Of a DNA stretch of 64,000 bases, positions 28,366 to 47,319 are shown in pieces. The stretch covers positions 46,460-110,459 of the forward strand of contig CALRDH010000001.1 of NCBI GenBank assembly GCA_943354835.1, in the 5' to 3' direction. A program made the translations under genes and the position numbers. Source of the stretch: a candidate division WWE3 bacterium (lineage in GTDB: Bacteria > Patescibacteriota > WWE3 > 2-01-FULL-39-13). Position 1 is the stretch's first letter. Every line of letters starts with the position of its first letter. The notes beneath the pieces are model-generated. The model saw only the letters and a program-made list of their open reading frames with translations, made no database searches and was not told the origin of the DNA.

Positions 28366-31300
28366 CTACGCTCGGCTAGCAGTTTTTGCCTTTTTATAAT
28401 ATAAAGAAAATCCAATTACAAAGATAAACACAATAAATACCAAATACCCTAAAAACTGTAAGTATTGTGGCCAGAAGATGATCACATAACTAGCAGAGAC
28501 CCCAGGAACAATCCAAGAATTTGCCCAGTTTTTTGCTAAAACATGACTTGCGGTAGATTTTTTACACGTAAATGGAGTTGTCATTCCTAACAAACATGAA
28601 TCTTTTTCATATAATCCCCAACCATTTTCAAATGATTGATTTAAAATAATAAGTCCGCCTTCTTTTACATCGGCTTTCTCTGATTTCTCAACTTTAACTT
28701 CATATTTATAAATAGCCTTTTTATCGACATTCAAAAGCTTCACACCATTTTCATAAAATTCTGGTGCATTTTTCGGCTTTACATAAATCCCTTTAAGCCA
28801 CTTATATGGGAAATATTTAACATCAACTCCATAAAGCTCATTTTCAGTTGGAGCATTGCCTATAGACTGATTGCCTATGTTGATTCCAACACTTTCGGCA
28901 GATGGATATGAAGGTAGAATAAAAGATTCCCTCCCATTTCCATTTAGTCTTTCTTGAATTAAGCATTTATCAAGATCAATTCCAGCAATACAAATATCTA
29001 AATTCTTACCAATTATATTTTTAGAATCAAATGTAATTAAATAGTCGGAATTTGCGTTTATAACTGTTGTTTCCAGGTTATCACAACTTATTGCATCAAT
29101 TGCTGAATATTTATATAAAGGCCGGTCGTCAAAAAGGCCTAAATCACGAGCAAATTTCTTTTCGTTAAAATTATCACAATTTTTTGCCTCAATATTATAT
29201 CCAAAATCACCAGGAATATATAACTTACTAAGGTTTCTATATTCTGGCAATATAACTTTAAGGGGCAGTTGCTCTTTTGTAACAATTATCTTTTGACTAC
29301 TTGAATAAGCCAACTCCGATGGTGAAAATATTTTAATCTGGGTTAATGGATACCTATAAACTTTTATATCCTTAAATGTTACTTCCTCTGATTTTGTACT
29401 ATTAAATTGATCAGAAATTAAGCTAAACCGCAATTTATCTTGACCTTTGGCAATTACATAATCAATAGATTTTTTAAATTGACCATCGATACTTATAGTT
29501 CCATTATATTTCTCATTCAAACACTTCTTTTCATTTTCGCTGTATAGGCAATAAGTCTGTTTTGAATCAGAAACATTTTTATATAAATAACTTATCTCAT
29601 AAACAAAATCAGTCGTATTCTCAATTCTTTCATCAAAATCCAAACAAACTGAACCGCCATCGCTTGAAACGATTACGCTTCCTGGATATTTATCATATGA
29701 CTTAGCAACGTTTTCGAGCGAACCAGAACAATTATTTACCTCACTACTGTATATTTGGTCACTAAAATCGTAAAAATCCGACGAAAATGAATCATAAGAA
29801 ACAATTGTAGAATTAGGTTTTATTAAAAACGAACTTCCAGTTTCTGTTAATTTAACGGGTTTATTATTAAATAATATCTTTTTGGATGGATCTAAAATGA
29901 CATCGATTACCTCATTAAATTGATTTTCATAAATATCATTATTCTTTGAATCAACAATCTTTGGCCTTAAATAAGAAACCTCAATATTATCGGAATTAAA
30001 AGATACCAAAGCAGGAAGAGGACTATTAAAATCAAAACCTGGAGCGACAACGGAATAAATATCATTCGAAGCGAAAGACGGATAATCAATTAAATAATCT
30101 TCCAGACTAGCCAAAACACGATCATCTGAAAATGGGAAATGCAAGGGCTTTTTGTCGTTTATCGAATCAACTAAAATATAATTAGAAAACCCGGATAAAT
30201 AAATAGGATCGAGATTAGAAAAATTATACCTTGTCAAAATATTGCTCGACTCTTTGGGAGTATATACATACGATATTGAAGGTTCCTTATGATCTACTTT
30301 ATATATAAATATGAAATCTCCAAACTTTGTGTCAAGTGAAATCCGATTAGAACGGGATAATAGTTCTTTGGTTGCCTCATAGAATAAAGCGCGTTTGGCA
30401 TCTGGTGTAATAACACTTTCATCTATTAAGAGATAATCAATTTGATATTTATTCAAAACAGAATCAAATAAATCAATATTTTGTGAATAAATCGCGTATT
30501 GAAGTTCGTTATAGAACTGCTCATTTTTATAATTCCACCCATCAAAAGCCCTATCTGTTATAGCTTGCTCAATACCGTACCACATAAATCCGCTACCCCT
30601 ATATCCCCAATTATGAAATCTCCACCCCCAAAAAGTGTGTTGCGGCAAATTTACAATTCGTTTTGAAATATCTTGTGATTTAAAATAAGCAAATAATTGT
30701 TTATATTCATTCGGCAATTCGATTTTTAAATTTTCGTATATGAAATTTCCACGGAATATAGGATATGATTGTAATAATATAGCCGAAATAATAATTGCCG
30801 CCAATACGTAACTATTATTTTTAAACTTTTCAAAAGTTTTTGCAAAAAAGACAAACCCAAATCCAAGAAAAATACTGTAGGTTAATGAAGCAGGGACAAT
30901 CCACTTTGTAAAAGCAAATCTAAAAACTTCTCCAAAAACTGGAAATTTATCTACTATAAAGCTATATAGAAATCCTGTCGGCCAAGCAGTACCAATCAAA
31001 AAGAATAACGACAAAAAAAACATACACAAAAGGCCCAAAATAAACAAACGTCGATGAGAAAAGGTTGCAAATATAACTCCAATAATTATTATAAGAAATA
31101 GAAAGTATCCAATAAATGCGATAAAGTTGTAACTAATCCAACCTATCCAAGGCTGTAACATGTATTCAAATTGCCCCTCATTATTTGGATAATAGTCGAT
31201 GTACGAAAACCAAAAACCACGCAATTTTGATACATCGGAAATATTTCCATATCTGTTGTTGTATTGGTATGCGTTTTCACTACTAATACGATTGATTATG

Positions 31301-32103
31301 GAATCAAATCTAGAATCTACTCCACCGCTAAATAAATAATAACCAAAAGGAGCTAACCAGTATAAATTTATAAAAAAGAACACCATCCAGAAAACGACTT
31401 GTCTTTTTATGAGTATAAAATTCTTCGTAATCAGGGACTTAATAAAAATACCTAGATTCAAAGGCAGAAAAAGCAAACAAAACACAAAAAATAATGTAGG
31501 GATAAAAAAAGCTGTTGTTATTGCAAGTAAAGCTGTAAGCATTAACCCATTTTTGAATCCAAATCCTTTATATACATATAAATAAAAAATTAATATTGAT
31601 AGCGGTAAAAAAGCATAAAAAGCAGAAAAAGCTTCAAGTGGGGAATAAAAATTCTGAACCGTACCAAGATTTAGCATGTAAAACAAAGCGACAATAAAAG
31701 ACACTAACGAACTATGTTTATATTTCTCAAAAATAGCCAATTTAGATAAAAAATATGTTGAATACACGCCAATTGCGAGCAGTATAAATTGGAAAACATA
31801 TCTGTATAGCCACTGCGGAAGCAGTAATAATGGAGAAAATAAGATAATTCGAACAACTTCTGTAGAATGCCCATGACCTGCAACCAAACCCAAACCCTGA
31901 TATTCTTCCCATACAGAACTAAAATTTCGAGTAAGATTTAATATTGGATCAAACTCAACTTGCTGATTATCCCAACCCAAAAGATATGTATTAGGTCTTA
32001 TATTGCTAATTGCCAGAAAAACTAACACTAAAAATAGTATTAGGACAGGATTAAAAATACGTTTTATTCTTGTTTTCATTGAATTCAAAGCCATATTTGC
32101 CAT
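28366..32103 (-). CDS. large polytopic membrane protein with a big extracytoplasmic domain (GT-C/YfhO/PTPS-related-like)
   Basis: 1245 aa. About 14 N-terminal transmembrane helices, then a ~750-aa soluble region and a C-terminal transmembrane helix. Last gene of a glycosyltransferase operon. Family assignment is tentative. Confidence 0.55.
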   Translation of the reverse strand: MANMALNSMKTRIKRIFNPVLILFLVLVFLAISNIRPNTYLLGWDNQQVEFDPILNLTRNFSSVWEEYQGLGLVAGHGHSTEVVRIILFSPLLLLPQWLYRYVFQFILLAIGVYSTYFLSKLAIFEKYKHSSLVSFIVALFYMLNLGTVQNFYSPLEAFSAFYAFLPLSILIFYLYVYKGFGFKNGLMLTALLAITTAFFIPTLFFVFCLLFLPLNLGIFIKSLITKNFILIKRQVVFWMVFFFINLYWLAPFGYYLFSGGVDSRFDSIINRISSENAYQYNNRYGNISDVSKLRGFWFSYIDYYPNNEGQFEYMLQPWIGWISYNFIAFIGYFLFLIIIIGVIFATFSHRRLFILGLLCMFFLSLFFLIGTAWPTGFLYSFIVDKFPVFGEVFRFAFTKWIVPASLTYSIFLGFGFVFFAKTFEKFKNNSYVLAAIIISAILLQSYPIFRGNFIYENLKIELPNEYKQLFAYFKSQDISKRIVNLPQHTFWGWRFHNWGYRGSGFMWYGIEQAITDRAFDGWNYKNEQFYNELQYAIYSQNIDLFDSVLNKYQIDYLLIDESVITPDAKRALFYEATKELLSRSNRISLDTKFGDFIFIYKVDHKEPSISYVYTPKESSNILTRYNFSNLDPIYLSGFSNYILVDSINDKKPLHFPFSDDRVLASLEDYLIDYPSFASNDIYSVVAPGFDFNSPLPALVSFNSDNIEVSYLRPKIVDSKNNDIYENQFNEVIDVILDPSKKILFNNKPVKLTETGSSFLIKPNSTIVSYDSFSSDFYDFSDQIYSSEVNNCSGSLENVAKSYDKYPGSVIVSSDGGSVCLDFDERIENTTDFVYEISYLYKNVSDSKQTYCLYSENEKKCLNEKYNGTISIDGQFKKSIDYVIAKGQDKLRFSLISDQFNSTKSEEVTFKDIKVYRYPLTQIKIFSPSELAYSSSQKIIVTKEQLPLKVILPEYRNLSKLYIPGDFGYNIEAKNCDNFNEKKFARDLGLFDDRPLYKYSAIDAISCDNLETTVINANSDYLITFDSKNIIGKNLDICIAGIDLDKCLIQERLNGNGRESFILPSYPSAESVGINIGNQSIGNAPTENELYGVDVKYFPYKWLKGIYVKPKNAPEFYENGVKLLNVDKKAIYKYEVKVEKSEKADVKEGGLIILNQSFENGWGLYEKDSCLLGMTTPFTCKKSTASHVLAKNWANSWIVPGVSASYVIIFWPQYLQFLGYLVFIVFIFVIGFSLYYKKAKTASRA

Positions 32104-32107
32104 TTTA

Positions 32108-33385
32108 TTAAAAAGAGGAGATTCCTATTAATAATAGGAAAAAAGTAAATAAAACACATTGAATAGCAACTAAGATAAAAATGCCAAGAGAAGACAATAG
32201 TTTACTAATCTTAAAATCGCTCCATATTACCGACATAATAGCTATTACTTGAAAACCAGGCAAAGAATACCTAATGATACTCGCCATGCTACCTATAGAG
32301 CTTATACTAAAAGTATATACGCACAAAAAAATTGTCATCGTTACTAATTGCTTACGAACATTAGCTGGTAACTTTTTAAATGATGGATGAAAAAGTTTTA
32401 AAAAATAAAACAGCGTGAAAATGATTAAAGAGATGAAACTAACAACTATGAAAATTGTTTGTATTAGTAAATTATTGCTATATGCATTTAAATAATCAAT
32501 AACAATTGCGAATGGATATTTTACACCGTTATCCCAAACTTTCTGTATATCGAATGAAGCAAAAAAATTCCCGGATACCGATTTCAGATGATAAAAAAAC
32601 AATGCTATAGGAAGAAGTGACACAAAACTATACAACACAATTTTAGAAATTGACGAAAATTTGAAATTGTTTTGATAAAAAAGCCCAGATAGATAAAAAT
32701 AGGCGAACGGAAAAACCAAGGTATATCCAATTGGTTTAGTAATCATAGCTAAACCAATACATAAAGAAGATATTAAATATCTTTCTTTAAATAGAAAATA
32801 AAACATACTAATCATTAATAATAAAAACAGACTTTCGGTATAAGCAATACTTGTGAAATAAGCTGCCGGAAAAGCAAGCAGAAATATTATCACTCCATAT
32901 ATCTTATCTTTAGGGACCTTCAGATTTGATAATACTTTATAAACAATAAGATAATTGATATAGATCGCAATATTAGAGACAATGACCCCTGATACAAGTG
33001 CATTCTTATAAGACAAATCGCCCCAAACCCACGTAAAGATAAACACTAACAATGGATACAGTGGATAAAATGCCCAATTGTGATAAGAATTAGTATTAAA
33101 TTTTACTCTGTCGTAACCATCTACAGCAATACGTAGATAATAATTGGTGTCCCATTTCGCCCACAAATCATATATATGATAAGAAGGGCTTAGATTTTGA
33201 AAGACTCTTGGAACAGAAAATAAGCCAGTTGGAGTGGCTTCCTGCCAAATCCTTGCCGGCAGTGTGTAAATTATAAAAACAGAAAAGAAATACCTAGTAA
33301 AAAAAATAACTATGACAAAAATGAGAATTAAAACCTTATAATCAAATAAAAAGCTGATAATTGGCTTTAATCGATTCATTTTCAA
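32108..33385 (-). CDS. polytopic membrane protein, likely a GT-C-fold glycosyltransferase
   Basis: 425 aa with about 11 transmembrane helices and no soluble domain. Operon context with GT4 and the 1245-aa membrane protein. Confidence 0.45.
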   Translation of the reverse strand: MKMNRLKPIISFLFDYKVLILIFVIVIFFTRYFFSVFIIYTLPARIWQEATPTGLFSVPRVFQNLSPSYHIYDLWAKWDTNYYLRIAVDGYDRVKFNTNSYHNWAFYPLYPLLVFIFTWVWGDLSYKNALVSGVIVSNIAIYINYLIVYKVLSNLKVPKDKIYGVIIFLLAFPAAYFTSIAYTESLFLLLMISMFYFLFKERYLISSLCIGLAMITKPIGYTLVFPFAYFYLSGLFYQNNFKFSSISKIVLYSFVSLLPIALFFYHLKSVSGNFFASFDIQKVWDNGVKYPFAIVIDYLNAYSNNLLIQTIFIVVSFISLIIFTLFYFLKLFHPSFKKLPANVRKQLVTMTIFLCVYTFSISSIGSMASIIRYSLPGFQVIAIMSVIWSDFKISKLLSSLGIFILVAIQCVLFTFFLLLIGISSF

Positions 33386-33388
33386 TTT

Positions 33389-34177
33389 TTAGTTAACTCG
33401 GAAAATTTCCGTTGTTTCGTCAGCAAATATTTTTGAAAAAAACTCCATTGTATTGACATCGTCATATATAGGGTCAAACGCATACCAATAGGTTAAAAAA
33501 TAAGTTTTTTCTTGCGGCCTATCAAAATTGAGCGAAATAGAATCGCCTCTTTTAACGTCGTAAGTAAAAACTGGCTCAAATTTGTGGACATTTCCTTCTA
33601 AAGTTTCTTTAAAATCTGCAATCTGTTTTTGGTCACTTGGAGTAGTTAAGTAAACATTTGCCGAATTATCTAGTGAAGTCATTAAACCATCAATATAAAA
33701 TTTTCCGCTTCTTAAAAAAGTGAAATTGGGTTTTGATATATCTTGGCCTGGTATAACTTCTATAGATTTTTGAATGTATCCATTCGTATATTCGCTCTCA
33801 AAGTTATAACTATCAGCTATGTATGACCATGATTTAAAAAACTGCGGACATGGTGTTTTCATGGATTTGTCAAAAATTATTATCTTAATATTTTTTGACT
33901 TAAAATAGTTGTTAGCTTCCTGTCTAGAAATTTCGGTTTCTTTTAAAGATTCACAAGAGAAATATCGATCTTCTTTACTTGCACTAGAACTAATTGATTT
34001 TAATGGGAGTGTAATAGATAAATCGCTTTGGCTAGAGTTAAAAGAAGTATCAACTCCTCTATTATGCCACTTGTTCATATTGAATATGAATAAAGCTAAC
34101 AAAACGATATATGCAACCAAAAGAGCAATGGAAAAACGAGCCACAAAATCTCTAATTCCAAACAAAAAAGACCGCAT
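33389..34177 (-). CDS. membrane-anchored hypothetical protein
   Basis: N-terminal transmembrane helix (IALLVAYIVLLALFIF) then a soluble domain. Operon member. Confidence 0.4.
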   Translation of the reverse strand: MRSFLFGIRDFVARFSIALLVAYIVLLALFIFNMNKWHNRGVDTSFNSSQSDLSITLPLKSISSSASKEDRYFSCESLKETEISRQEANNYFKSKNIKIIIFDKSMKTPCPQFFKSWSYIADSYNFESEYTNGYIQKSIEVIPGQDISKPNFTFLRSGKFYIDGLMTSLDNSANVYLTTPSDQKQIADFKETLEGNVHKFEPVFTYDVKRGDSISLNFDRPQEKTYFLTYWYAFDPIYDDVNTMEFFSKIFADETTEIFRVN

Positions 34178-34189
34178 TATAGAATTCCA

Positions 34190-35509
34190 TTAACTAACGG
34201 TTACTACTAAAGGCTTTAACTCAACATTCACTAATTTAAGTTTAGCATATTGATTAAAAATAAGGGCACAATAGTCTAACGACAAAGATTCCCACTGTCT
34301 CTTTATAAAAACAGATTTAGAAAACGCAACATATTTTTCTATATTTCCTTCTAATTTTGTTAGCCTAGATCTAAAACTTTTTGAATTTATATTAAATATA
34401 ATATCTTCATTTTTCAAACCAGAATTTGCAAGAGAATACTTTATATCATTGCTTTTAAAATACTCGCTCAAAACATTCGATAATAAGACAGGTTTATTGT
34501 ACGAAAAAGCCAATGATAATGGCCCCGAAGATGACATAAACGTTTTGTATGGCAATATAACGGCTTCACAAGCATTATAATAATAATCAACCATATCGTC
34601 AGGAACAAAACCCGTCATTATTGCACCTTTTTCTTTTGCAAGTTTTTTTATCTTTTCTATAAATTCTTGATAAAAAGCATCACTTGCATATGCCGGATTT
34701 TCTCCGCCTGCAATTATTAGTTCATACCCTGTGTTTTTGTCCCAGATTTGAAGTAAATCATCAATTCCTTTATATAAAGATAAAAAGCCAAAGTATAATA
34801 AGTATTTTTTATTTGCATCTAAACCTAATTTCTTTTTCGCAATCGATTTATCTATTATTTTTTTTGGTTCAACAGCTAATGCTATAACAGAAATTTTGTC
34901 ACTATCTCCCAAGTGTTCTTTCATACTCTGCTCAAAAACAATAACGTTTTCACATGGAAACATGATTAAATTGTAAAAAGCACTTCTTAAATTATTAAAG
35001 ATAAAAGCTTTAGCTTTATTATGTTCAAAAACACCTATATCAGAAACAACATTGTGGAATATTAAAGTAACATCTTTACCTATAATCTTTGAAAGATAAA
35101 TTAAACCTATATATATAGGTAAATATATTAAATTCCCAACGATAAAAAATTCAAAAGGAAATAATATCTTATTAGATTTTGACTTTACTATCTCTTTTGC
35201 AATACTAAATAAACCCTTAAGGCTATTAATTTTCCACTTTCTTTGAACGTTAATCCCATCTTCGTCTACGTATGCTTCTGGTTTATTGAAAATATTAGCA
35301 ATAACCTTAACATTTAATTCAGGCATCGCTTTTTTCATCCATTTAAGGGTTTTTTGTGTATGCCAGGCAATTCCACCTGTCATATTTTTATATTTTTTAT
35401 TTCTACTTGGATAACTTGAAATTACTAACAAGCTATCGGTTTCTTTAATATTATTCATAAATTTCATATTTCTATTTACGAGATTAAAATCTCTCCTAAA
35501 TAAAAACAA
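34190..35509 (-). CDS. glycosyltransferase family 4 (GT-B fold)
   Basis: C-terminal GT1/GT4 signature region (LIIAGGENP...FVPDD...AVILPY). A possible later start at MKFMNN, about 35467. Confidence 0.7.
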   Translation of the reverse strand: MFLFRRDFNLVNRNMKFMNNIKETDSLLVISSYPSRNKKYKNMTGGIAWHTQKTLKWMKKAMPELNVKVIANIFNKPEAYVDEDGINVQRKWKINSLKGLFSIAKEIVKSKSNKILFPFEFFIVGNLIYLPIYIGLIYLSKIIGKDVTLIFHNVVSDIGVFEHNKAKAFIFNNLRSAFYNLIMFPCENVIVFEQSMKEHLGDSDKISVIALAVEPKKIIDKSIAKKKLGLDANKKYLLYFGFLSLYKGIDDLLQIWDKNTGYELIIAGGENPAYASDAFYQEFIEKIKKLAKEKGAIMTGFVPDDMVDYYYNACEAVILPYKTFMSSSGPLSLAFSYNKPVLLSNVLSEYFKSNDIKYSLANSGLKNEDIIFNINSKSFRSRLTKLEGNIEKYVAFSKSVFIKRQWESLSLDYCALIFNQYAKLKLVNVELKPLVVTVS

Positions 35510-35611
35510 GCGGTCGAGATCGAAAAGGGAATGTGCATAAGCACAAATAGCAAAATCTGCTACCCTAGTCGACCTCGACCCTAACAGAAAAGCACAAATT
35601 GTACTACGGAA

Positions 35612-35782
35612 CTACGGCTGCGGTGTTGCAGTCACAATCGCACTCGGCTGGGGAGCCGGGAGTTGTGGGGCCGAAGGCTCCTGCTCTCCTATCCCTAGTG
35701 GGTTGTACACGAATTGCAACACGATCAGTAGGACTAGCAGTCCAGCTGCAATTGCTGATTTAACACCGAAATACGCTTTCAT
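35612..35782 (-). CDS. small hypothetical exported or membrane peptide (56 aa) in the high-GC island
   Basis: Reads MKAYFGVKSAIAAGLLVLLIVLQFVYNPLGIGEQEPSAPQLPAPQPSAIVTATPQP. Preceded by GAGGAG six nucleotides upstream of the ATG. GC-rich codons. Shorter than 60 aa, so absent from the ORF track. Confidence 0.3.
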   Translation of the reverse strand: MKAYFGVKSAIAAGLLVLLIVLQFVYNPLGIGEQEPSAPQLPAPQPSAIVTATPQP

Positions 35783-36042
35783 GGAAATCTCCTCGTTGTT
35801 GTGTTGTTGAATAAAAAAAGCACGTTTAAGCTAACGAGGTTGTGACCTCATTCTCTTAATTCGTGCTTTCTAAGTATTCGCAACATTCCAAAAAAGGATT
35901 TCAAAGTCAATGCGAACGCACGCTTTTTCTTTCCGTAATATTTGTGCCGTGTTTACATAATTCTTTGAATTGGCTCAAGCTTATTGAGCTTATCTCTGAA
36001 AAAGCAAACACTATATGAACGTACTTTTACCTTGCGGTAAAT

Positions 36043-36080
36043 CTAAACCAACGAACGAATTGTTCCTTGGCTAGTTTTTA
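36043..36080. repeat. copy A of a conserved ~35-nt upstream motif (AACGAACGAATTGTTCCTTGGCTAG)
   Basis: Shares the CGAACGA(A/T)TTGTTCC core with the copies at 37613 and 39586. Lies about 260 bp 5' of the small ORF start. Confidence 0.35.
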
Positions 36081-36116
36081 ACTGAGATGAAAAGATCGCA
36101 AATCAAAAACTACTGT

Positions 36117-36190
36117 GGGACTGTGACTTTTAAAAACTGATTGCTTGCGCAACCAAAACTCATACGAAATCGCATGAGAGTCACAGTCCC
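36117..36190 (-). terminator. long stem-loop downstream of the island gene: a 12-bp perfect stem enclosing nested small hairpins
   Basis: GGGACTGTGACT (36117-36128) pairs with AGTCACAGTCCC (36179-36190). The 50-nt loop contains the CTCAT...ATGAG and TTGCGCAA palindromes. On the minus strand it is followed by AGTTTTTGATTT. Confidence 0.3.
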
Positions 36191-36212
36191 TTGAGGCACT
36201 ACATCCTACTGA

Positions 36213-37280
36213 CTACTGATTTTTGAACACCAATGGCAAGTTTGTCCTGTAAAGACATTCTTGCTCCTCACCGCCGCCTTCGTACACGTAGCACACGTAA
36301 ATCGGTGTTGGCGTCGGGGTTACCGTCGCTGTTGCCGTCGGCGTGCTGGTTGGTGTCGACGTGCTCGTCGGTGTCGGCGTCGAACTCGGAGTACTGCTGG
36401 GTGTCGCACTCGGCGTCGGGGTAGCCACTGGCTCCTCAACATTCCAAATGGACGATCCACCCGCTGCGATAGTCGCACTTCGCGCCTCTGCCCATGTCGG
36501 CCAAGTCTTTCCATCCACTGCAGGGGAACCTGTTGTAAGGTACCAACCCCCTGGCGTGCACGGATCTGACATCGGCAATCTATTGGCTTCGGCCAAACTA
36601 CTTGTCACCCACGGGGATGACCCATCACAGAACCCACTCGGTGCCGCATCGAACATTGCTGTCGCGGTCGGGGTCGCTGTGGACGTGCTCGTCGGAGTAC
36701 TGCTTGGTGTCGCGGTTGGCGTGTTCGTCGCTGTGCTGGTCGGGACCGGCGTACTCGTTGACGTATTCGTCGCTGTGCTAGTCGGAACCGGCGTACTCGT
36801 TGACGTGTTCGTCGCTGTGCTAGTCGGAACCGGCGTACTCGTTGACGTATTCGTCGCTGTGCTGGTCGGGACCGGCGTACTTGTTGACGTATTCGTCGCT
36901 GTGCTAGTCGGAACCGGCGTACTCGTTGACGTGTTCGTCTCTGGGGTGGCTGTTGCCTCCCAGTGAATGCGCCATATCGACGATCCGCCTGCACTCACAG
37001 TTGCGTTTCTCGCTCCAGTCCATTCCGGCCACCTAACTCCGTTAAGGGTACCCACTCCTATTGTGAGGAATGGCCCTCCGGCTGGTGAACACGGGTCTTG
37101 AACGGGGAGCGCATCTGCCTCTTGCTGCGTACTCGAAACCCAAGGGGCCGATCCTGCACAGAATTGTGCGAGATTCGGCGATCCGGCGGTAACGATACGT
37201 GCAACGTAAGGCGAAAGCGTACTTCCTACGATGATTGCAAACGCAATCAAAGCCCTCAAAAACTTACTAATCTGAAACAT
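36213..37280 (-). CDS. secreted protein with two homologous ~70-aa Cys-containing domains joined by a Thr/Pro-rich tandem-repeat linker
   Basis: Signal peptide (MFQISKFLRALIAFAIIVGS) with AAGGAG 7 nt upstream of the ATG at 37280; the ORF track extends to a GTG at 37310. Domains: CAGSAPWVSSTQQEADALPVQDPCSPAGG...ARNATVSAGGSSIW and CDGSSPWVTSSLAEANRLPMSDPCTPGG...ARSATIAAGGSSIW. The linker is TNTSTSTPVPTSTA five times. GC3-rich codons. Confidence 0.6.
   Translation of the reverse strand: MFQISKFLRALIAFAIIVGSTLSPYVARIVTAGSPNLAQFCAGSAPWVSSTQQEADALPVQDPCSPAGGPFLTIGVGTLNGVRWPEWTGARNATVSAGGSSIWRIHWEATATPETNTSTSTPVPTSTATNTSTSTPVPTSTATNTSTSTPVPTSTATNTSTSTPVPTSTATNTSTSTPVPTSTATNTPTATPSSTPTSTSTATPTATAMFDAAPSGFCDGSSPWVTSSLAEANRLPMSDPCTPGGWYLTTGSPAVDGKTWPTWAEARSATIAAGGSSIWNVEEPVATPTPSATPSSTPSSTPTPTSTSTPTSTPTATATVTPTPTPIYVCYVYEGGGEEQECLYRTNLPLVFKNQ
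36716..36940. repeat. 42-bp tandem repeat (~5.3 copies) encoding the TNTSTSTPVPTSTA linker
   Basis: Direct reading shows GTTGACGT(A/G)TTCGTCGCTGTGCT(A/G)GTCGG(A/G)ACCGGCGTACT(C/T) repeated head-to-tail. Confidence 0.75.
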
Positions 37281-37612
37281 TCTGATTTTCTCCTTACTAC
37301 GAAAAAACACGGGTAGAGGTACTTCAACAACTAACTTATCCCGAGTTTTTTTCCGGATAATTTAGTTGCTGAAGTGTCTATCTTTTGTTTTTCTGTTCTT
37401 TGAAGATTGAATGTCTCTACATTGTCTCTATCTAACTTAGTTTGTAATATAACGCCTTGCACTTGCGTGCGCGGCTACTATTACTCACTTCGTTTGTAAT
37501 ATAGTGCCTCGTATGAGCATAAAGATTCCTAAAGATCCAGTCAGAATTTGATTGGCCTTTATTCGTCTAACTCATACTATTTAAAAGAACTACGCCTTTC
37601 GGCGTTTCCGAT

Positions 37613-37660
37613 TGCTAACGAGCGATTTGCTCCTTAGTCGGTTGAAGGATTTCCCGTCCT
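37613..37660. repeat. copy B of the conserved upstream motif (CTAACGAGCGATTTGCTCCTTAGTCGGTTGAAGGATT)
   Basis: 33 of 37 positions match copy C, and every mismatch is a transition. About 330 bp 5' of the 36213-37280 gene. Confidence 0.4.
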
Positions 37661-38078
37661 GCCCTTCGGAAAACCCTTCAATCGTTTTTGCTACTTATTA
37701 GGTTTTATTTAATGATCGATATCCTGTGAGGTTAACTTAATGGTTGCGGCCTGACAGGACCTTTCACTTAAAAAGCTATCAGTCGCTACAACTTGTGTTT
37801 GTAGCGTACTGCAGTATTAATACTGTAGGCTATTCAAGTGAAGGCTAATATTACTATAGGGCAATCAAGATGTCAAAGGCATGTACAGGCCGGGTACATG
37901 GGTAACACTTTTGAAAAACTATTGTACGAGTTTATCACCTTCTGTACATATTCTACTGGCGTGTCCTGTCCATGGCTCTCATGTGGCTTTTATGTATTGT
38001 ATTCATAGATTCCAAACTTGAAACTGCGGGTGTAAGCCCGTGGAGATTCATATAAAAGAATAATCGTCTACCTCTTTC

Positions 38079-39407
38079 TTAAAATAAGAACTTCTCAAGA
38101 TAGTTAACCATGTAAAATGGCAAAGAAAGAACATTATACCCATGTGCGGTTAGCTCTTTTTTAGGGTGTCCAGAATACAGTTTTACTGCAATTCCACCAT
38201 TGGTATCCGATAAAAAGCTGTCAATAGATTTCCCCTTCGAATCGTTATATTTAACTTCTATGGCTGTTATTTTACTGCTTCCTTGTATGCAGTAATCGAC
38301 TTCGGCACTCCCCTTTTTAGAGTCTTTCGTCCAATAATATAGCTGCTGTCGATTAGCCATATTATTTGCCAATATATTCTGCCCGATTATCTGCTCATAA
38401 ATCGATCCTTTATATGTATATCTGGTCTTGTCAATTTGTTCTGGTGTTTTAACTTGATACAAATAGTTCGTAAACCCTGCGTCAATAAATAATAACTTGT
38501 GTGGTGGCTTATTCTTTTTGTGAATCGGGACCTCTGTAGACCACGTTGCTGGTACCAAAGTTAATAACATGACTTTTTCTAGCAAAGTAAAAGCCTCTCT
38601 TACTTCTCTACTTTTATAGCCCGAATCCGCAAAATTATCGAATTTTATTAAAGAACCAGCATAATATGGTCCTTGTGTAATTATCAAATCGAGGTATTTT
38701 GTTTTAGAGGATGTCGCATACTTATACACATCATCTGCATACCCAGAAAGGATAGAATTGTATATGCTAGTTAATAAATTATTATTTCTATGTTCTGCAT
38801 AATTCGCAACTATTTCTGGCATTCCTCCTATTAAGGTATACAGCCTAAATAACTCTATTAATTCGACATGGATAACATCGATTACTTCGAGATTTAGCAA
38901 ATCAATTTTTTCGATATAACTTACAAATTCTTCTTTCCCTAAGGCCACAAGAAATTCTATAAAAGTTAATGGATTAAGATACGCATACTCAATCCGCCCA
39001 ACCGGAATAGAGACTCCAGTTTCGGTTATTGTGGCTTCGAAAAACGACCCAGCCGCTATAACATGGATATTGGGTCTTAATTCATAAAAGAACCGCAACA
39101 GTGTAATTAAATAAGGATTTACTTGTATTTCGTCGATAAAAACTAATGTTTTTTCGTTTACAAGCGATTTATTATATTTGGTTTTTAAAATATCTTCAAA
39201 TTGCTCTATGCTAATTTCCCCATCAAAGTTATCTCTATCTGCAATATTTTCTAAATTTAAATATATGTAATTTTCGAAATGCTCTGCGAAAATATTTACA
39301 GCCATAGTCTTTCCAACTTGCCTGGCTCCTCTAAGTATTAATGGTTTACGATCGGCTTTATCTTTCCAGTTAAGTAAATATTTATGAATAGCTCGTTTTA
39401 TTCTCAT
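38079..39407 (-). CDS. AAA+ ATPase of the AAA_14/DUF4143 type
   Basis: Walker A LILRGARQVGKT, Walker B VFIDEIQ, and a C-terminal DUF4143-like region. 442 aa. Confidence 0.65.
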   Translation of the reverse strand: MRIKRAIHKYLLNWKDKADRKPLILRGARQVGKTMAVNIFAEHFENYIYLNLENIADRDNFDGEISIEQFEDILKTKYNKSLVNEKTLVFIDEIQVNPYLITLLRFFYELRPNIHVIAAGSFFEATITETGVSIPVGRIEYAYLNPLTFIEFLVALGKEEFVSYIEKIDLLNLEVIDVIHVELIELFRLYTLIGGMPEIVANYAEHRNNNLLTSIYNSILSGYADDVYKYATSSKTKYLDLIITQGPYYAGSLIKFDNFADSGYKSREVREAFTLLEKVMLLTLVPATWSTEVPIHKKNKPPHKLLFIDAGFTNYLYQVKTPEQIDKTRYTYKGSIYEQIIGQNILANNMANRQQLYYWTKDSKKGSAEVDYCIQGSSKITAIEVKYNDSKGKSIDSFLSDTNGGIAVKLYSGHPKKELTAHGYNVLSLPFYMVNYLEKFLF

Positions 39408-39585
39408 CTTAAAAGAATACTACTTTAGTTTTCAAGTTGCAACTTACTTGTAACACACCAGGGAACAAACTAGTACTTACTTAAGACATTCCCGGGGTTA
39501 CAATTCAAGTGTAAGCGAAGAATTGCTAGCCGAACACGTAAGTGTGAGGCGTTAAATTGGATTTCTGTTCCGATCTACAAGCTAT

Positions 39586-39640
39586 TGCTTCTAGCGAACG
39601 ATTTGTTCCCTAGTTGGTCGAAAGATTCATCCTTCGATCA
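39586..39640. repeat. copy C of the conserved upstream motif (CTAGCGAACGATTTGTTCCCTAGTTGGTCGAAAGATT)
   Basis: About 180 bp 5' of the AAA ATPase gene 38079-39407. Also shares the TTCCGAT...ATTGCT block with copy B. Confidence 0.4.
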
Positions 39641-39833
39641 TTAATTTTTCATTCAAATATCCAATAAAACTCACTTTAAAAACGAACTTTAGTAGATACC
39701 CGACTCATTGTAATGATTAAAATTTGTTTTTTTTTGCTGGCTCGAATTGAGTCAACGAAACAAATCTTCTACAAGAAGTTGTCGCAAATGTCTTGGGACA
39801 TTAAGGGGGAAAATAAATTATAAACTAAAAATT

Positions 39834-41012
39834 TTACTGAATATAACCGCCCCACAGGTAGTCGTTAAATCTAGCAGACTCTTCTTTTCCTATCAACCGA
39901 TAATCTTTTATGCCCAGACTTTCACTTTTAGCACTTAGCTTAGACGAATCAATATCTGTCGGAGTTTCTTTTGCCTCTAACGATAGGCTTCTATTCAATA
40001 TAAAATCGATTTCGCCGTCTCTTTTTGAATAGTAGTTCAGATTTCCATAAAAAGATAATTGGTGGCATAATGTATTTTCGTATTTACTTCCGGATGATAT
40101 GTCTGCATTTAAATTTGCTATTCCCGTATCCACAAAATAAATTTTCCCAGCTTTTCTTGTCTGAACATTTATGGATTTAGAATATACTTCTATATTTCTA
40201 ATTAAATAAGTCTTTTCCAAAAATTCAATATAAGAATCTATCGTTGGTCTGCTAATGCCTAATATCTTTGAAATTTCGTTAACATTTGTATTACTTCCTA
40301 TACGTGAAGCAAGTAACTTTATTAATTTTCTTAAATTACTAGAAGATTTAAAATCTGCAATTGCTTCGATGTCTAAAGTAATATACGAACTAAATATTTC
40401 TTCCAGCAATAATCTTTTTCTTTCAATGTCTTCGGTAAGAACTATTTTAGGTAAACCACCATATTCTATGTATTCTCTATACAGTGGTGATAGAAGGTTA
40501 TATGCATTTTTATTAAATTCACCGTTTGTATCAATTTTTTCTGGCAAATCATAACCAACCCCTTTAAAATTTAGAAACTCTTGAAATCTTAATGGAAACA
40601 TTTCATAAATAACTTTTCTTCCTGCCATAGATTCAGAGAATTTATTTTTGATATAAAAAGAGCTCGATCCTGTTAAGAAAAATTTAATATTATAGTGATC
40701 ATGTAGGTATTTAACGATATCCGGAATTGTTTCGAGTAATTGTATTTCGTCAATAGCGATATATAACTTTTCGGCTATATTCAAACCCCTATTTTCAAAC
40801 TCATTTACCAAAGCATCAAAGTTTTTAGTTTCGAAAAGTTCTCTATCTGAAATATTTTGAAGATCGAAATAGATTTTATTCTTTGATTCAAGCTGGTCTA
40901 AAAGCCAATATATGGTTGTAGTTTTTCCGACCTGCCTTGGACCAGTTATTACAATAACCTCCTCCGTAGTTAGCTCTTTTTTCAATTTTGCCCAAATTAA
41001 ACGATTTTTCAT
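39834..41012 (-). CDS. AAA+ ATPase of the AAA_14/DUF4143 type (paralog)
   Basis: Walker A VITGPRQVGKTT, Walker B IAIDEIQ. Its leader sequence is related to that of the upstream paralog. Confidence 0.65.
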   Translation of the reverse strand: MKNRLIWAKLKKELTTEEVIVITGPRQVGKTTTIYWLLDQLESKNKIYFDLQNISDRELFETKNFDALVNEFENRGLNIAEKLYIAIDEIQLLETIPDIVKYLHDHYNIKFFLTGSSSFYIKNKFSESMAGRKVIYEMFPLRFQEFLNFKGVGYDLPEKIDTNGEFNKNAYNLLSPLYREYIEYGGLPKIVLTEDIERKRLLLEEIFSSYITLDIEAIADFKSSSNLRKLIKLLASRIGSNTNVNEISKILGISRPTIDSYIEFLEKTYLIRNIEVYSKSINVQTRKAGKIYFVDTGIANLNADISSGSKYENTLCHQLSFYGNLNYYSKRDGEIDFILNRSLSLEAKETPTDIDSSKLSAKSESLGIKDYRLIGKEESARFNDYLWGGYIQ

Positions 41013-41219
41013 GCTACTACTTTACATAAATGGACGGTTTTTGTAAAGTACAACTTGCACTACGCACACTTAACTATTCCTGTTTCTTCCGTATTCTTTT
41101 TTGTAATCTTTTGCAACCGCCCTAAGATTTATCCAGTTTTGAATCGTCATAGTAATTAAAAAGTGCACATTCTGCCCAATGTGTTACCTGTGTTTCTCAA
41201 CCTGTGCAGGGGGGCCAAT

Positions 41220-41933
41220 TCAAACAAATCGTCCTAATTCATTTCTAAAAACAACGTCGAAGTTACCAATAATATTATGCAAGCTTCTTGGAAGAAAAGC
41301 TTTTAGTTCAGATGAGAAATTTATCTTTGTGGTATTAAAGACATTTAAAACCTGTTTTAACAACTTTCTTTGATTTAGAGTTATCAATCCATTACGTAGC
41401 ATAAAATAGATATCGTAAAAATCCCTTGGCTTCTTTCGACTTATAGAAGCTTTTATCTTTTCTTCGACTAAATAATCTTGAGATAAAGAAAGTAACGTAT
41501 AGTCATTTACGAATTCGCTTGATATTACATGCATATCAGATTTCAATTCACCATTTTGTCTAAGCGACACCTGTATGCTTATTTCAATATTATAATCAAA
41601 AAATTTATAATAAATATTCGATAAATACTCACCAGACGTAGCTTTCGATACTAAAACGCCTACATCAAAGCCTTCTTTTGCAGAACAATCTAACGCCACA
41701 AGTATAGCTCCTTCAATTTTTTTTACAGTTAATGCAGAAGAAAATTCTAAATCTTCAGAAAACCTTGAACTGTTAAACACTATTCGCAAGGCGGTTCCAC
41801 CATTAAAATAAATTTCAGGATTACTAGCATAAAAATAAGACAAAAAAACATGTTGGCAATATTCTCTCGCTATATTTATTTCTGCCGTTTGAAATTTAAT
41901 AGATTTTTTCTTTATTTCCTGCTTGTCTATCAT
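41220..41933 (-). CDS. abiEii: AbiEii-like nucleotidyltransferase toxin (type IV toxin-antitoxin)
   Basis: YFNGGTALRIVFNSSRFSEDLEF matches the GGTAL...RFSEDxDF nucleotidyltransferase motif of the AbiEii/DUF1814 family. Overlaps the upstream antitoxin gene. Confidence 0.65.
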   Translation of the reverse strand: MIDKQEIKKKSIKFQTAEINIAREYCQHVFLSYFYASNPEIYFNGGTALRIVFNSSRFSEDLEFSSALTVKKIEGAILVALDCSAKEGFDVGVLVSKATSGEYLSNIYYKFFDYNIEISIQVSLRQNGELKSDMHVISSEFVNDYTLLSLSQDYLVEEKIKASISRKKPRDFYDIYFMLRNGLITLNQRKLLKQVLNVFNTTKINFSSELKAFLPRSLHNIIGNFDVVFRNELGRFV

Positions 41934-42746
41934 AATTTTCCTTAATCCACTTACTCAAACTCTTAGAATCAAATAATTCGGCATACTCTACAACATCTTT
42001 TTTATTCACTTTCTCTAGGTTTAATCTGTCGTTAAATGCAATCCTGCCCAATGAAACAAAATATAGATAATCAGCAACAGCTTTCTCTGGTTTAGCCATA
42101 TAATAGTTATCCATTTTGGTATATCCCGTAAAAGCTTTTGTTTTAACACTCCTGTATAAATATGACATATTATTTACATCAAACTCATTTGTGGTTTTAG
42201 TTGTCACACATGTAATTGAATAAACAACTTCAGGAATAAGCCCATATACAGAAAGGGCTGATTCTAAGGATATATACGAAGGTTTAATCAGATATGCCGA
42301 AATCGAATACGTACTCGGAATAAAGTCCTTTGAATAATAAAGTCCGTTCTTAATTTTTATAAAAAATCCATAAATTGCTCTTACTTTGAAATTCGTTAAA
42401 CGTGTTGTATCTCATTGGGGAAAGTATACAAAAGTGTATACTTTCCCCAATGAGAATACGAGTCATGAAAGTTATCGCACCAGTCTTTGTTAAATTGCTT
42501 TATGCTTTGATTTAAAGTGTTATCACTTTCAGGAACCAACATCTTTAATGTGTTTTTCATAAAGTATGGAAGGCTTTTTAGTTTTAAAATATCTGCGCTT
42601 TTCATTTTAGTAATGGTACTAAATACATGCCAATTCCAAAACGCGTCGAACAAATTGTCAAACACATGAAACTCCACGGGCTTAGGCCATAGTTTCATAC
42701 AGGGCATAAATTCTGGTATTTTTTGGATCCATATTAGTAACGGCAC
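41896..42746 (-). pseudogene. abiEi: AbiEi-like antitoxin gene split by a 44-bp palindromic insertion or frameshift
   Basis: The 103-aa ORF (AKPEKAVADYLYF) continues upstream in-frame without a start codon (...IKIKNGLYYSKD...SYISLESALSVYGLIPEVV) to a TGA at 42414-42416. The 116-aa ORF 42396-42746 is in the other frame. Deleting 42411-42454 joins them into one ~267-aa AbiEi-like ORF with wHTH TTRLTNFKVRAIYGFFIKIKNGLYY. Confidence 0.5.
42411..42454. repeat. perfect 19-bp inverted repeat with a 6-bp spacer (44 bp)
   Basis: CTCATTGGGGAAAGTATAC aaaagt GTATACTTTCCCCAATGAG. There are no mismatches in the arms. Confidence 0.85.
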
Positions 42747-42755
42747 TAAAAATCT

Positions 42756-43568
42756 TTATTGATATTCGGGTTCTACAACTTCGTATCTGAATCCAGGGTT
42801 TTGGATTCCTCCTGGGACTATCTGCGTAAGCACTGAATTTGGGACATACATAACAAGCGTATCGACCAACATACCCTCTGATGCGGGAATTATTACTATC
42901 GGAACAGCAATTGGAGCTGAATGACTACCGTCAGGACTCGTCATTTGAGGGAAATTCCCTAGCTCTGTTACACGAACACCACTACCACCAAGTCCATTCA
43001 TATGTGTTATATATTTGCTCAAAGGTGTTCTATCAGAAATAAAAGCTTGAGTATGCGATCCAGTATCTTCAATTCTTTGTACCCATAAACCAAAACCTCT
43101 ATCCTGAAAATTTTCGGTAACTCCTGGCACATTTTTAGGTTTGGGATTGATACCTTCTGGTGTGAAAGACATTTTCCATGCAGATCCGTCTGGATTATCT
43201 TGGTGTTTTGCTGGTGGTAATGGTATAAACATAAATAGATCACCAGATGGAAATTGTTCAGATGAAACGAAATCTTCACCGTACGCAACAGAATAAGCAT
43301 GCCTAACAACAGTTGAAACGCTGTCATAAACACCCGCGTAATTTTCGGCAACATACGCATTCGCATCCTTAAACGCTGGTTCAGGGCGATATCCTTGCTT
43401 TTCAGGGTTAGAAACAGACGGAACACAGGCAGCAACTAAAGCTGCTGCCGCGGCAACTCCTGCAGAACCTGCCAAAAATTGTCGTCTAGTCATACCACCC
43501 GAACCATCCGTACTACCCTGCCCAAAAGGTTCTTCTGTTGGATTTATTGTCATTAATTGATTACTCAT
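42756..43568 (-). CDS. Tat-signal lipoprotein, hypothetical
   Basis: Twin-arginine motif TRRQFLAGSAGVAAAAALVAAC with a lipobox-like VAAC. 270 aa. Intermediate GC. Confidence 0.45.
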   Translation of the reverse strand: MSNQLMTINPTEEPFGQGSTDGSGGMTRRQFLAGSAGVAAAAALVAACVPSVSNPEKQGYRPEPAFKDANAYVAENYAGVYDSVSTVVRHAYSVAYGEDFVSSEQFPSGDLFMFIPLPPAKHQDNPDGSAWKMSFTPEGINPKPKNVPGVTENFQDRGFGLWVQRIEDTGSHTQAFISDRTPLSKYITHMNGLGGSGVRVTELGNFPQMTSPDGSHSAPIAVPIVIIPASEGMLVDTLVMYVPNSVLTQIVPGGIQNPGFRYEVVEPEYQ

Positions 43569-43593
43569 AACGAAAAAATGATATCATAAAAAT

Positions 43594-46500: not shown

Positions 46501-47319
46501 ATGATAACGAAATTTTGGGAGCTCAAGTACGCATACTCTAAATTCACACCACCAGACATGACTTACGAAACATTAGTCACAATGGCCGAAGGCCCATGTG
46601 GGCTATCTGCAATTGGACTCGTTGCCTGCTTACGCGCTGTCGGAATCCCCGCAATTTATGCGAGTGGATTCCTAAACGACAAAGACAACGAACTGACAGA
46701 CAAAGAATTGCATGGTTTTGTATACGTCCATGATGGTTCTATATGGCGCGCGATCGAACCACAAAACGGAAGATTCACTCAAGAAGAAATTCAGACTGCC
46801 GAGATAATAAATCGTGGTGCGCCAACATTTGCGATATCAAATTCAGCAGGACAGCTTACACAAGTAAAACTTGGTGGAAACCCACTAACACTTCGCGATG
46901 CTTCAGGGGTACTTACATCTGCTGAAAACACAGCAAATCCAGCTATCATGGCTACACTTGAAACCGTCCTTAACGTTCCACAAAATGGCGAGACTATGGC
47001 AAATACTAAGGGCAATTCCGTAACTCAGCGTTTACAAACGCCACAAGAAAAGCAATTAGCAAGCAATCAACCTGAAGAGGAGAACCTGAGCGATGCGTCA
47101 CTAACATTACCAACAACCACAGATGGCAACAATGTTATTACAACTATCCTTTCTGAAAATAAAAAAACGGCGACTTATGCGGGTGGAGTACTTCTGGCCG
47201 CAGCTGGAGTAGGCGGAGTACTTAAAGGCATACAAATTGCTACACGGCGTGCATACGCAAGAGGATTTGATGAAGCATATGATGAGGTACTTCATGCAAT
47301 CCAGGATACATTGCTATAA
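43594..47319 (+). CDS. giant hypothetical protein (1241 aa) with a C-terminal transglutaminase-like cysteine peptidase core
   Basis: GPCGLSAIGLVACLRAVGIPAIYASGF...HGFVYVHDGSIWRAIEP fits the Cys/His/Asp transglutaminase-like superfamily signature. No N-terminal signal peptide. A hydrophobic segment lies near the C-terminus (YAGGVLLAAAGVGGVL). Confidence 0.55.
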   Translation: MPVTSITGLTPENQAEPSPIEIAIQAMDSIDFDQQLPFEARTGLTSTSRKAYDLPPEKAAEIVAYEAEQNKGYAIDQTSPPRTFFQTPTEIIEYTGTDIDQSRLATVTAIYYATSAREGLNETEATAQAGKKENQGAGSHNFGLKFLANLVITIGKARLKILSRYNHPRQGPVVWAGEYKQKEAHSGIGHQLALDYLKEQDGKGDLPHIAYSTLMKIENPPTELVQAAANMHKRYILSDPHYQHAKLVQPAENTLVNITEFDYSHAHYELLPRGIHALEASVDRNGLYKAAAVDWLALEDREIRFLLPLAIRPSPESTYSPTRSLDSGSMLNGEYTRYAIEDQMEKGNIPLLQQIVLRMRESGLYTDLIVGIDDKWDKRLVNLPIELRTRSYKTSPWTRETKNFFDEFISHDMDVIAMGSLSEYARLCDLYNRLSPQVRVKLKNYKLALVGDDLKAQMCLSGAITIDTLERRIDDMAEIQSWKHDETFNQVPFNLPLLLQDVAKDPGLKISFSGSTISVSQSGYHPIRLDPHRQLMHGDLFTLVEQTAQNALLRDLIKFILWAEAKRNTRTMAIARVSMSQGKTKLESSYRPIKGTNQIPILSHTEQIKNRRNIAYPQIMVRIDGLSDETFEEVSRLYEDFRAAILKEKEIKKENLDRNLKLKVAELWRRKKENRQKLTRDKKIRMEQSVAQSPEERVSTETLNVWQARASSAIHHLTWILSTSILAGSHGRSREAPKQPSRRDLFRSAFSSIELNNDKARPLVAGRLDDNAASNSPISFGSALLPGRSESLENATVPDPIELKASHPGVLKSGYYLNRLYHKMPVDPYHFIDPPAEMTRIQIRNGKPESEHHIAVVYDSKADEVTIPLKLGATVNSYTGPSAEFFVDTNSQTLKAKILGDKSKPLKAYITEKGDSSDVYSPWANIANMPVTEDDVAPLIDISLLSNENDRLALQAIRDLDAHTDIKIAMITKFWELKYAYSKFTPPDMTYETLVTMAEGPCGLSAIGLVACLRAVGIPAIYASGFLNDKDNELTDKELHGFVYVHDGSIWRAIEPQNGRFTQEEIQTAEIINRGAPTFAISNSAGQLTQVKLGGNPLTLRDASGVLTSAENTANPAIMATLETVLNVPQNGETMANTKGNSVTQRLQTPQEKQLASNQPEEENLSDASLTLPTTTDGNNVITTILSENKKTATYAGGVLLAAAGVGGVLKGIQIATRRAYARGFDEAYDEVLHAIQDTLL

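Follow-up and report, generated by a model that had tools for sequence, protein, structure and literature searches.

Tandem-repeat-encoded Pro/Thr linkers, typically O-glycosylated, join the carbohydrate-binding module (CBM) to the catalytic domain in cellulases and xylanases from Actinobacteria such as Cellulomonas, the variable surface adhesins of host-associated bacteria show repeat-length polymorphism, and islets of atypical GC content carrying orphan open reading frames (ORFans) are common in bacterial genomes. Genomic islands and horizontal gene transfer (HGT) have been documented in Patescibacteria as well (PMC12455944). The present work concerns a small GC-rich locus at about 35.5 to 37.3 kb of a 64,000-nucleotide stretch (hereafter the window; contig CALRDH010000001.1 of the assembly GCA_943354835.1, positions 46,460 to 110,459, forward strand) from a candidate division WWE3 bacterium, the main gene of which encodes a predicted exported protein with two small modules separated by Thr/Pro/Ser linkers. 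We consider, with slightly better than even confidence, that this locus carries unameliorated coding DNA of foreign origin for an exported, stalked, two-module protein of the binding type, brought into the WWE3 chromosome by more than one import or by allelic replacement.

The GC content of the window as a whole is 34.4%, while the 300-bp intervals between 36150 and 37200 reach 0.55-0.61 against 0.24-0.36 in the flanks. The sole long ORF beneath this main peak (36213-37310) lies on the minus strand, which had been left unspecified in the initial annotation. The GC content of the main gene (0.576) was compared with 299 background windows of the same size (mean 0.339, standard deviation 0.029, maximum 0.429), giving a z-score of 8.2, with a tetranucleotide distance z-score of up to 12.3, and its GC content at third codon positions (GC3) is 0.57, whereas the other ORFs of 120 aa or more in the window, 46 in all, fall between 0.18 and 0.35. 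The codons ACG, CCG, GCG and GTG take 45, 65, 44 and 38% of their codon families in the main gene and 11, 14, 12 and 9% in the host genes, respectively. Thus, the compositional shift against the rest of the contig and the G/C third-position preference (44-65% for the NCG codons as against 11-14% in host genes), both proposed in the initial annotation, were borne out by the calculation. The high GC content might be regarded as a mere by-product of a protein rich in Thr, Pro, Ala, Ser and Gly and of the expansion of GC-rich repeats, as the second codon positions (GC2) reach 0.69 over the whole gene and 0.85-0.95 in the linkers, and about 20% of the gene consists of repeats. However, GC3 is 0.51 in each of the two globular domains, which are free of repeats, and 0.62 in the C-terminal tail (0.64-0.65 in the linkers, 0.45 in the signal peptide), outside the host range, and, therefore, the high GC is not due to the Thr/Pro linkers, the amino-acid content or the repeat expansion; with the synonymous shift towards NCG and GTG codons, this refutes the by-product explanation, to which we assign a very small probability.

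The GC-rich island was originally described as extending from 35.52 to 37.32 kb, and this description holds for its main peak and for a second, smaller patch at 35550-35850 (GC 0.49) that corresponds to a short reading frame, ORF2, but not for the continuity of the island: between the two high-GC coding stretches, the main gene and ORF2, lies a non-coding block of 317 nt with a host-like GC of 0.36, so that the island is not one continuous block. The foreign-looking coding DNA, therefore, totals only about 1-1.7 kb, in two pieces. The mildly raised GC content of the region 37320-38080, on the other side of the main gene, is explained without foreign DNA by structured stretches, candidate RNAs or leaders of the host, that are described below.

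The junctions between the GC-rich and AT-rich DNA were found in independent assemblies. A separately assembled contig of 13.6 kb from the European Nucleotide Archive (ENA; L001) spans both junctions with 99.97% identity, the sole difference being the lack of 126 bp of the repeat; a Logan contig of 52 kb (L002) runs from the AT-rich flank into the repeat with 100% identity; and another, of 1.2 kb (L005), runs from the repeat to about 35508 and includes the conserved non-coding block. These Logan contigs, in which the gene is joined to the flank or to the conserved block with 100% identity, derive from the run ERR5863117. A contig from a second, sibling sample (L003) carries a divergent allele, with flanks that are likewise AT-rich. 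An assembly chimera or contamination, in which high-GC reads would have been wrongly joined into an AT-rich contig, could be suspected from the fragmentation of the short-read contigs at the locus and from the repeat copy number varying between assemblies. Its probability is negligible against both L001 junctions, the Logan joins, the divergent allele within the same AT-rich flanks in the second sample, and the ribosome-binding site (RBS) and terminator of the main gene, which are in place; the presence of the junctions in three independent assemblies shows that the locus is not a chimera.

The variation between the assemblies is confined to a 42-bp repeat array at 36715-36943, present in 5.5 copies, of which the five full units each encode TNTSTSTPVPTSTA, all nucleotide differences between the units being synonymous; the earlier claim that the Thr/Pro linker is made of 42-bp DNA repeats, with five such units, was thus correct. 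The ENA contig is shorter by exactly 126 bp, i.e., by three units, leaving 2.5 copies (4488-4590 of that contig), and the 2.5-unit version of the protein (313 aa) is also found on a 430-kb contig. Neither the 355-aa nor the 365-aa reading of the window protein is recorded exactly, the 313-aa form with three fewer units being the only one in the records, and the Logan contigs end inside the array. The difference between 5.5 and 2.5 units in near-identical assemblies reflects either a real slippage polymorphism or a short-read collapse.

The translation start was placed at the ATG at 37280 owing to an AAGGAG RBS located 9 nt upstream, which is kept in the sibling locus; an in-frame GTG at 37310 is an unlikely alternative. 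The dN/dS ratio against the sibling allele is 0.09-0.17 across both modules and the tail, which shows that the main gene is real and under purifying selection. Its product (coordinates of the parts are collected in the table) begins with a Sec-type signal peptide, with a putative cleavage site V-T-A|G in the window protein and A-F-A|G in the sibling allele, export and cleavage being predicted from the sequence, and continues with the modules D1 and D2, the two linkers and a C-terminal tail. The D1 and D2 modules are 54% identical to each other (E 4e-25), each with two Cys and an AGGSSIW end, and the residues invariant across the four module copies of the two alleles include the two Cys, four Trp and the AGGSSIW end. 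The architecture outlined in the initial annotation, with a signal peptide, two paralogous modules ending in AGGSSIW with two Cys each, and a Thr/Pro linker, was recovered at the same positions, and its failure to place the modules in a known family was upheld by Pfam, NCBIfam, PHROGs and a PDB profile search, none of which gave a match. The same Pfam, NCBIfam and PDB profile searches recognised no glycoside hydrolase or CBM domain (the top PDB match, an endoglucanase at E 3.6, is noise), and no catalytic domain was detected in the main protein. The C-terminus, ending in CLYRTNLPLVFKNQ before the stop codon, has no LPXTG-type anchor, i.e., no TG, hydrophobic stretch or basic tail, and gave no match to the NCBIfam sorting-signal models. 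The AlphaFold2 model of the module from the four-copy alignment is of moderate confidence (pLDDT 72.8, pTM 0.63, the five models spanning 43-73), and the full-length model is unusable (pLDDT 36). The modules constitute a new protein family, with no relatives detected beyond the sibling allele. Because of the predicted export, of small stalk-borne modules rich in disulfides and Trp, and of the lack of a catalytic domain, the main protein would be an extracellular binding protein, either an adhesin or a glycan binder, displayed on or released from the cell, and O-glycosylation of its Thr/Pro/Ser stalks by the neighbouring cell-surface glycosylation genes is probable.

The history of the locus was approached through the sibling strain, the main gene being compared with the allele on L003 and the neighbouring glycosyltransferase (GT) with a second contig of the same sample (L010), which amounts to a comparison of n = 2 alleles. 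The L003 contig, of only 1.7 kb, encodes a protein of 280 aa (P0001) with the same architecture from the signal peptide to the tail and 66-70% identity to the window protein, its gene has a GC3 of 0.54, and it occupies the same locus within AT-rich flanks that are homologous to those of the window; the flanks of the locus are thus homologous in a related genome, a point that the initial annotation had proposed to check. The GT on L010 is 95% identical at the amino-acid level and 93.2% at the nucleotide level. The synonymous divergence (dS) of this backbone is 0.19 for the GT and 0.25 for the next gene, both with a dN/dS of about 0.15, whereas within the main gene it comes to 0.30 for the signal peptide, 1.45 for D1, 0.40 for linker 1 (where the repeat alignment is ambiguous), 3.3 for D2, saturation for linker 2 and 1.8 for the C-terminal tail. 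The synonymous divergence of the main gene is, thus, about ten-fold that of the backbone in the same sibling-species pair, and the allele differences are distributed over all codon positions and the entire gene. Judged by these values, the alleles of the main gene are far older than the split of their two hosts, and one recent acquisition followed by vertical inheritance cannot account for both of them.

Under a simple two-rate mutation model with a host GC3 equilibrium of 0.24, which assumes neutral synonymous sites, GC3 would fall from a start of 0.6-1.0 to 0.31-0.46 once a total dS of 1.45 had accumulated in situ, and to 0.25-0.27 at a total dS of 3, while the GC3 observed in the segments concerned is 0.45-0.67 in both alleles. 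Consequently, the divergence of the alleles arose in a GC-richer background, unless the synonymous sites are under unusual selection. The recent un-ameliorated horizontal acquisition suggested at first is, therefore, retained as to the foreign composition at synonymous sites and abandoned, as too simple, in respect of a single recent event with the host lineage as donor, given a dS from 1.45 to infinity against 0.19-0.25 in the backbone. In the scheme that we favour, the locus would be a small accessory one in the WWE3 chromosome, with coding parts drawn unameliorated from a GC-richer gene pool, encoding an exported protein whose two Trp/Cys-rich modules would be held apart by long Thr/Pro/Ser stalks and followed by a 29-aa tail with two Cys; the length of the first stalk may shift through gain or loss of 42-bp units. 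The divergence of the alleles would arise outside the AT-biased genome, and at least one allele may have entered the locus independently or displaced a resident copy by recombination, so that import, or allelic replacement through recombination, would have occupied or rewritten the locus on two or more occasions, in place of one acquisition followed by inheritance.

The same data may be read as a long-resident, lineage-specific surface-protein gene, in which old alleles were kept by balancing selection and shuffled between strains, and a high GC3 was maintained by selection or by a GC-biased process. In keeping with such a history, two species share the locus, the architecture and the high GC3, conservation extends to the backbone-like flanks and the 317-nt block, the protein is under purifying selection, and neither a donor nor mobility signatures were found. 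However, no mechanism is known by which a single gene of a genome with 34% GC would keep NCG-ending codons, and the neutral expectation for GC3 is at most 0.46 after a dS above 1.4 and about 0.26 after a dS of 3. The gene was also found neither in the WWE3 representative with 87% identity of the ComM protein nor in any other GTDB representative, and no other ORF of the 64 kb carries the module, the tail or the Thr/Pro linkers. The resident history is, on balance, doubtful, although it is the main rival of the scheme that we favour. The initial annotation had counted homologues of the same composition at the same locus across related AT-rich genomes as evidence against its claim; none was found among the GTDB representatives, and in the sibling species a homologue with a GC3 of 0.54 occupies the same locus. 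The saturated dS and the retained GC3 mean that this same-locus, same-composition homologue does not rescue vertical inheritance.

The search for relatives was made with several collections. A profile of D1 and D2 run against 1.84 billion cluster representatives returned two proteins, P0001 and P0002, of which P0001, the sibling protein, is the one true relative. The second, a Calx-beta/BNR repeat protein, was considered as a homologue and rejected, since the similarity is limited to a local motif of 19-35 residues (hhalign probability 25% over 19 columns); the motif that it has in common with the window modules is (G.T)W..A..ATI.AG.SS (E 4e-6 summed over five repeats), and the Pfam Calx-beta and BNR models gave no match to the window protein. 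A word-indexed set of 5.8 billion proteins gave no relative with D1+D2 or with the C-terminal module as queries, a search that missed even known family members. No relative was found with back-translated motifs in the GTDB species representatives, including the WWE3 genome just mentioned, in IMG/VR or in the JGI metagenomes, nor by tblastn in phage and plasmid records. Accordingly, no match to Actinobacteria or Chloroflexi, for which the initial annotation had proposed to look, appeared among the 1.84 billion representatives, the 5.8-billion set, GTDB, JGI, IMG/VR, or the phage and plasmid records, and the Thr/Pro linker, the sole trait pointing to a high-GC Gram-positive donor, is not diagnostic of one. 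The idea that a motif of the 'LPLVxRN' type is common in proteins of Chloroflexota gained no support and was not used. Within the 64-kb window, no other ORF contains the module, the tail or a Thr/Pro run, and a BLAST of 35500-38100 against the whole window for a template of a diversity-generating retroelement or a silent cassette gave internal repeats only.

As for the surroundings, the window encodes Alr, Ddl, four proteins of the Mur-ligase family, MurA, MurB, SecD, a ComM-like ATPase, a protein of the YceG family and RecJ, and this content shows that it is chromosomal. The ComM protein shares 87% identity with that of 'candidate division WWE3 bacterium CG_4_9_14_0_2_um_filter_35_11' and 57% with the ComM of another WWE3 metagenome-assembled genome (MAG), so that the host is a WWE3 (Katanobacteria) bacterium belonging to the candidate phyla radiation (CPR), and the earlier guess of a small-genome bacterium is supported by the first of these matches. 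On the one side of the locus, at 28366-35509, lies a cell-envelope cluster with few or no annotated relatives, comprising a 1245-aa protein without a match in Pfam or PHROGs, a hydrophobic protein of 425 aa whose similarity to a family named after the formation of cell-surface glycopolymers lies far below the threshold (24.7 bits against a curated cutoff of 150), a 262-aa protein of unknown nature and a GT1 glycosyltransferase, the closest homologue of which beyond the sibling strain is only 44% identical, indicating that the lineage is poorly sampled. On the other side, at 38079-42207, there is an accessory, defence-like stretch with two tandem AAA_14/DUF4143 ATPases, a toxin of the AbiEii family and a small overlapping ORF (see the table). 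Farther on, at 42756-47319, the GC content is mildly raised (about 0.41) over the genes of a 270-aa protein with a twin-arginine-like signal and of a 1241-aa transglutaminase-like protein, where a host-like GC3 (0.25-0.30) shows that the rise comes from the amino-acid content and not from a foreign origin.

Table. Features of the GC-rich locus and of the adjoining defence-like stretch (window positions).
Feature	Position	Strand	Description
ORF2, 56 aa	35612..35782	minus	GC3 0.53; GAGGAG RBS; N-terminal hydrophobic (membrane) helix and Pro/Gln-rich tail
ORF-free block, 317 nt	35812..36128	minus	GC 0.36; between the main-gene terminator hairpin and ORF2
Hairpin	36117..36190	minus	perfect 12-bp arms GGGACTGTGACT / AGTCACAGTCCC; T-run GTAGTTTTTGATTT within about 10 nt
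Main gene	36213..37280	minus	355 aa + stop; GC 0.576, GC3 0.57; AAGGAG RBS 37290-37295
C-terminal 29-aa module	36216..36302	minus	IYVCYVYEGGGEEQECLYRTNLPLVFKNQ; two Cys; 75% identical in sibling allele
Thr/Pro/Ser linker 2, aa 284-326 (43 aa)	36303..36431	minus	
Domain D2, aa 212-283	36432..36647	minus	paralogue of D1
Thr/Pro/Ser linker 1, aa 109-211 (103 aa)	36648..36956	minus	holds the 42-bp tandem repeat
Domain D1, aa 34-108	36957..37181	minus	orphan module of ~72 aa; 2 Cys, 4 invariant Trp, AGGSSIW end
Sec-type signal peptide (predicted), aa 1-33	37182..37280	minus	basic n-region (K6, R9), hydrophobic core, AXA-like site
Structured stretch, ~260 nt	within 37585..37876	minus	fold z-scores: minus strand, -6.8; plus strand, -5.5
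Terminator-like hairpin	37605-37592	minus	ACGCCGAAAGGCGT + T-run; ends the ~260-nt structured stretch
Promoter-like TTGACA-17-TAATAT	37876-37848	minus	near-consensus
Two tandem AAA_14/DUF4143 ATPases	38079-39407, 39834-41012		
AbiEii-family toxin	41220-41933		
103-aa ORF	41896-42207		overlaps the AbiEii toxin upstream; could be the antitoxin

The position of the locus, with the glycosyltransferase cluster on one side and the defence-like genes (AAA_14/DUF4143, AbiEii) on the other, brings up the explanation by a mobile element or a phage of different composition that was inserted there with the main gene as cargo. The adjoining accessory and defence-type genes, the break of the Logan contigs at the compositional edge near 35508, and the content varying between the sibling strains, including a different ORF2, would agree with such an insertion. 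Its improbability follows from the lack of any integrase, transposase, phage family, tRNA or terminal repeats among the features found and of any match in IMG/VR, phage or plasmid records, and from the conserved host-like block that interrupts the high-GC parts; the search for an integrase covered the annotated neighbours. In ORF2 itself, the exact protein of which is also recorded in NCBI, Logan and ENA, the sibling strain has a longer high-GC gene at the same position, of at least 175 aa as judged from two contig ends (1516-1689 of L003 and 1-354 of L010), with a different N-terminus. The fragment on L010, upstream of the GT, is a high-GC (0.55-0.65) ORF of at least 117 aa that matches ORF2 over its last 14 or so codons only, and ORF2 is probably a short allele or a decayed remnant of the larger high-GC gene seen in the sibling strain. 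A third copy of the module in the sibling's ORF2 ('WIGEWGARA...') was considered and rejected (hmmsearch score 0.5, E 2.9).

Several circumstances weigh against the foreign origin of the locus by repeated import or replacement. No donor homologue was found in any searched collection, nor any homologue outside the two WWE3 loci, so that the foreign character is argued from the composition and the apparently patchy distribution alone; donor copies on high-GC contigs could, however, exist unseen behind P0001, because the cluster representatives hide relatives more than 50% identical to it, only one 50%-identity cluster existing among the 1.84 billion. The occurrence of the gene at one locus in two species would also agree with an older resident gene, and the sparse sampling of the lineage makes the absence from relatives weak evidence. 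There is no tRNA in the 64-kb window, no convincing direct or inverted repeats flank the locus, and no integrase was met among the annotated neighbours, a statement that covers these neighbours and not every ORF of the window. The allele comparison has n = 2, with one allele from a 1.7-kb contig, and the amelioration model presumes neutral synonymous sites. The function proposed for the protein has neither experimental nor structural support, the model of the module being of moderate confidence only.

The locus also contains two non-coding elements, for each of which only two sequences were available for comparison. The hairpin that follows the main gene, with arms conserved and a loop variable in the sibling strain, is its probable transcription terminator. 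The 317-nt block between this hairpin and ORF2 is 96.2% identical to its counterpart on L003, as compared with 93.2% for the backbone (P = 0.016) and a neutral expectation of about 82% (P ~1e-14), and its fold z-score against shuffled sequences is -5.5 for the minus strand, compared with -2.6 for the plus strand; it contains hairpins of the GNRA type and ends with a long hairpin and a U-run about 35 nt ahead of the ORF2 start. The near-identity of the block had been considered as a signature of recombination, which was dropped after calibration on the backbone (93.2% nucleotide identity, dS about 0.2); the calibration means that the identity is explained by purifying selection on a functional non-coding element, and the block is a candidate structured RNA or attenuator-type leader. 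A 20-mer taken from it was absent from the JGI metagenomes and from IMG/VR. The second element belongs to the 760-nt ORF-free region upstream of the main gene, where a promoter-like sequence, a strongly structured stretch and a terminator-like hairpin follow each other; together (37585..37876) they may represent a small RNA or a long leader preceding the main gene. The adjoining 70 nt (37498-37567) are 100% identical to L003. In Rfam, no family reached its gathering score anywhere in the window, and the interval 35500-38100 gave no match at E <= 1. In the same upstream region, two 26-nt direct repeats (37432-37509, 85% identical) flank a segment of about 52 bp that is missing from that of the sibling, suggestive of a small duplication or of a deletion between the repeats.

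An extension of the repeated-import scheme would regard the locus as a recombination-driven slot, in which the WWE3 episymbiont repeatedly installs surface-binding genes from a GC-richer partner, i.e., its host, with the two conserved structured RNAs framing and regulating the slot. We consider this extension unlikely; in it, the alleles would be host-range determinants, and their composition and sequence could identify the host of an uncultured CPR lineage. To our knowledge, there is no cultured representative of WWE3, and the molecules of the cell-cell contact in CPR are largely unknown. As regards the host lineage, which the initial annotation had named as a plausible donor, no host is named in those parts of the review PMC13293708 where WWE3 is mentioned. 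The gene was probably taken from another organism, possibly more than once. An exported stalked protein that looks imported and diverges sharply between siblings is a reasonable candidate for a contact or binding factor, donor copies could, if they occur in the same samples, point to the partner organism, and both of the conserved non-coding stretches next to the main gene, with their strong structure, are candidate new RNAs.

In comparison with the described systems, the locus resembles the atypical genomic islets (PMC12455944) in its deviant GC content, oligonucleotide and codon usage, its apparently patchy distribution, its place beside genes of defence or toxin-antitoxin type and a content that varies between close relatives; unlike them, it has no donor, mobility genes, tRNA or repeat borders, it is split into two pieces by a conserved host-like block, and it holds two deeply diverged, equally unameliorated alleles at one site. 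The main protein shares with the Cellulomonas-type cellulases and xylanases a signal peptide, small modules with aromatic residues and Cys, and long Thr/Pro linkers encoded by tandem DNA repeats, but it has no detectable glycoside hydrolase or CBM and no sequence or fold match to them, two modules of binding size and the tail being the whole protein. It is an orphan protein family that is new here, whereas HGT into Patescibacteria was already known and no new mechanism is shown. From the variable adhesins, the protein differs in a dN/dS of about 0.1-0.2, indicative of purifying and not of diversifying selection, and in having no recognised anchor and no silent cassettes in the 64 kb; it is like them in its predicted export, in the 5.5 versus 2.5 repeat units, in the strongly divergent alleles of sibling species and in belonging to an organism that is presumed to be contact-dependent.

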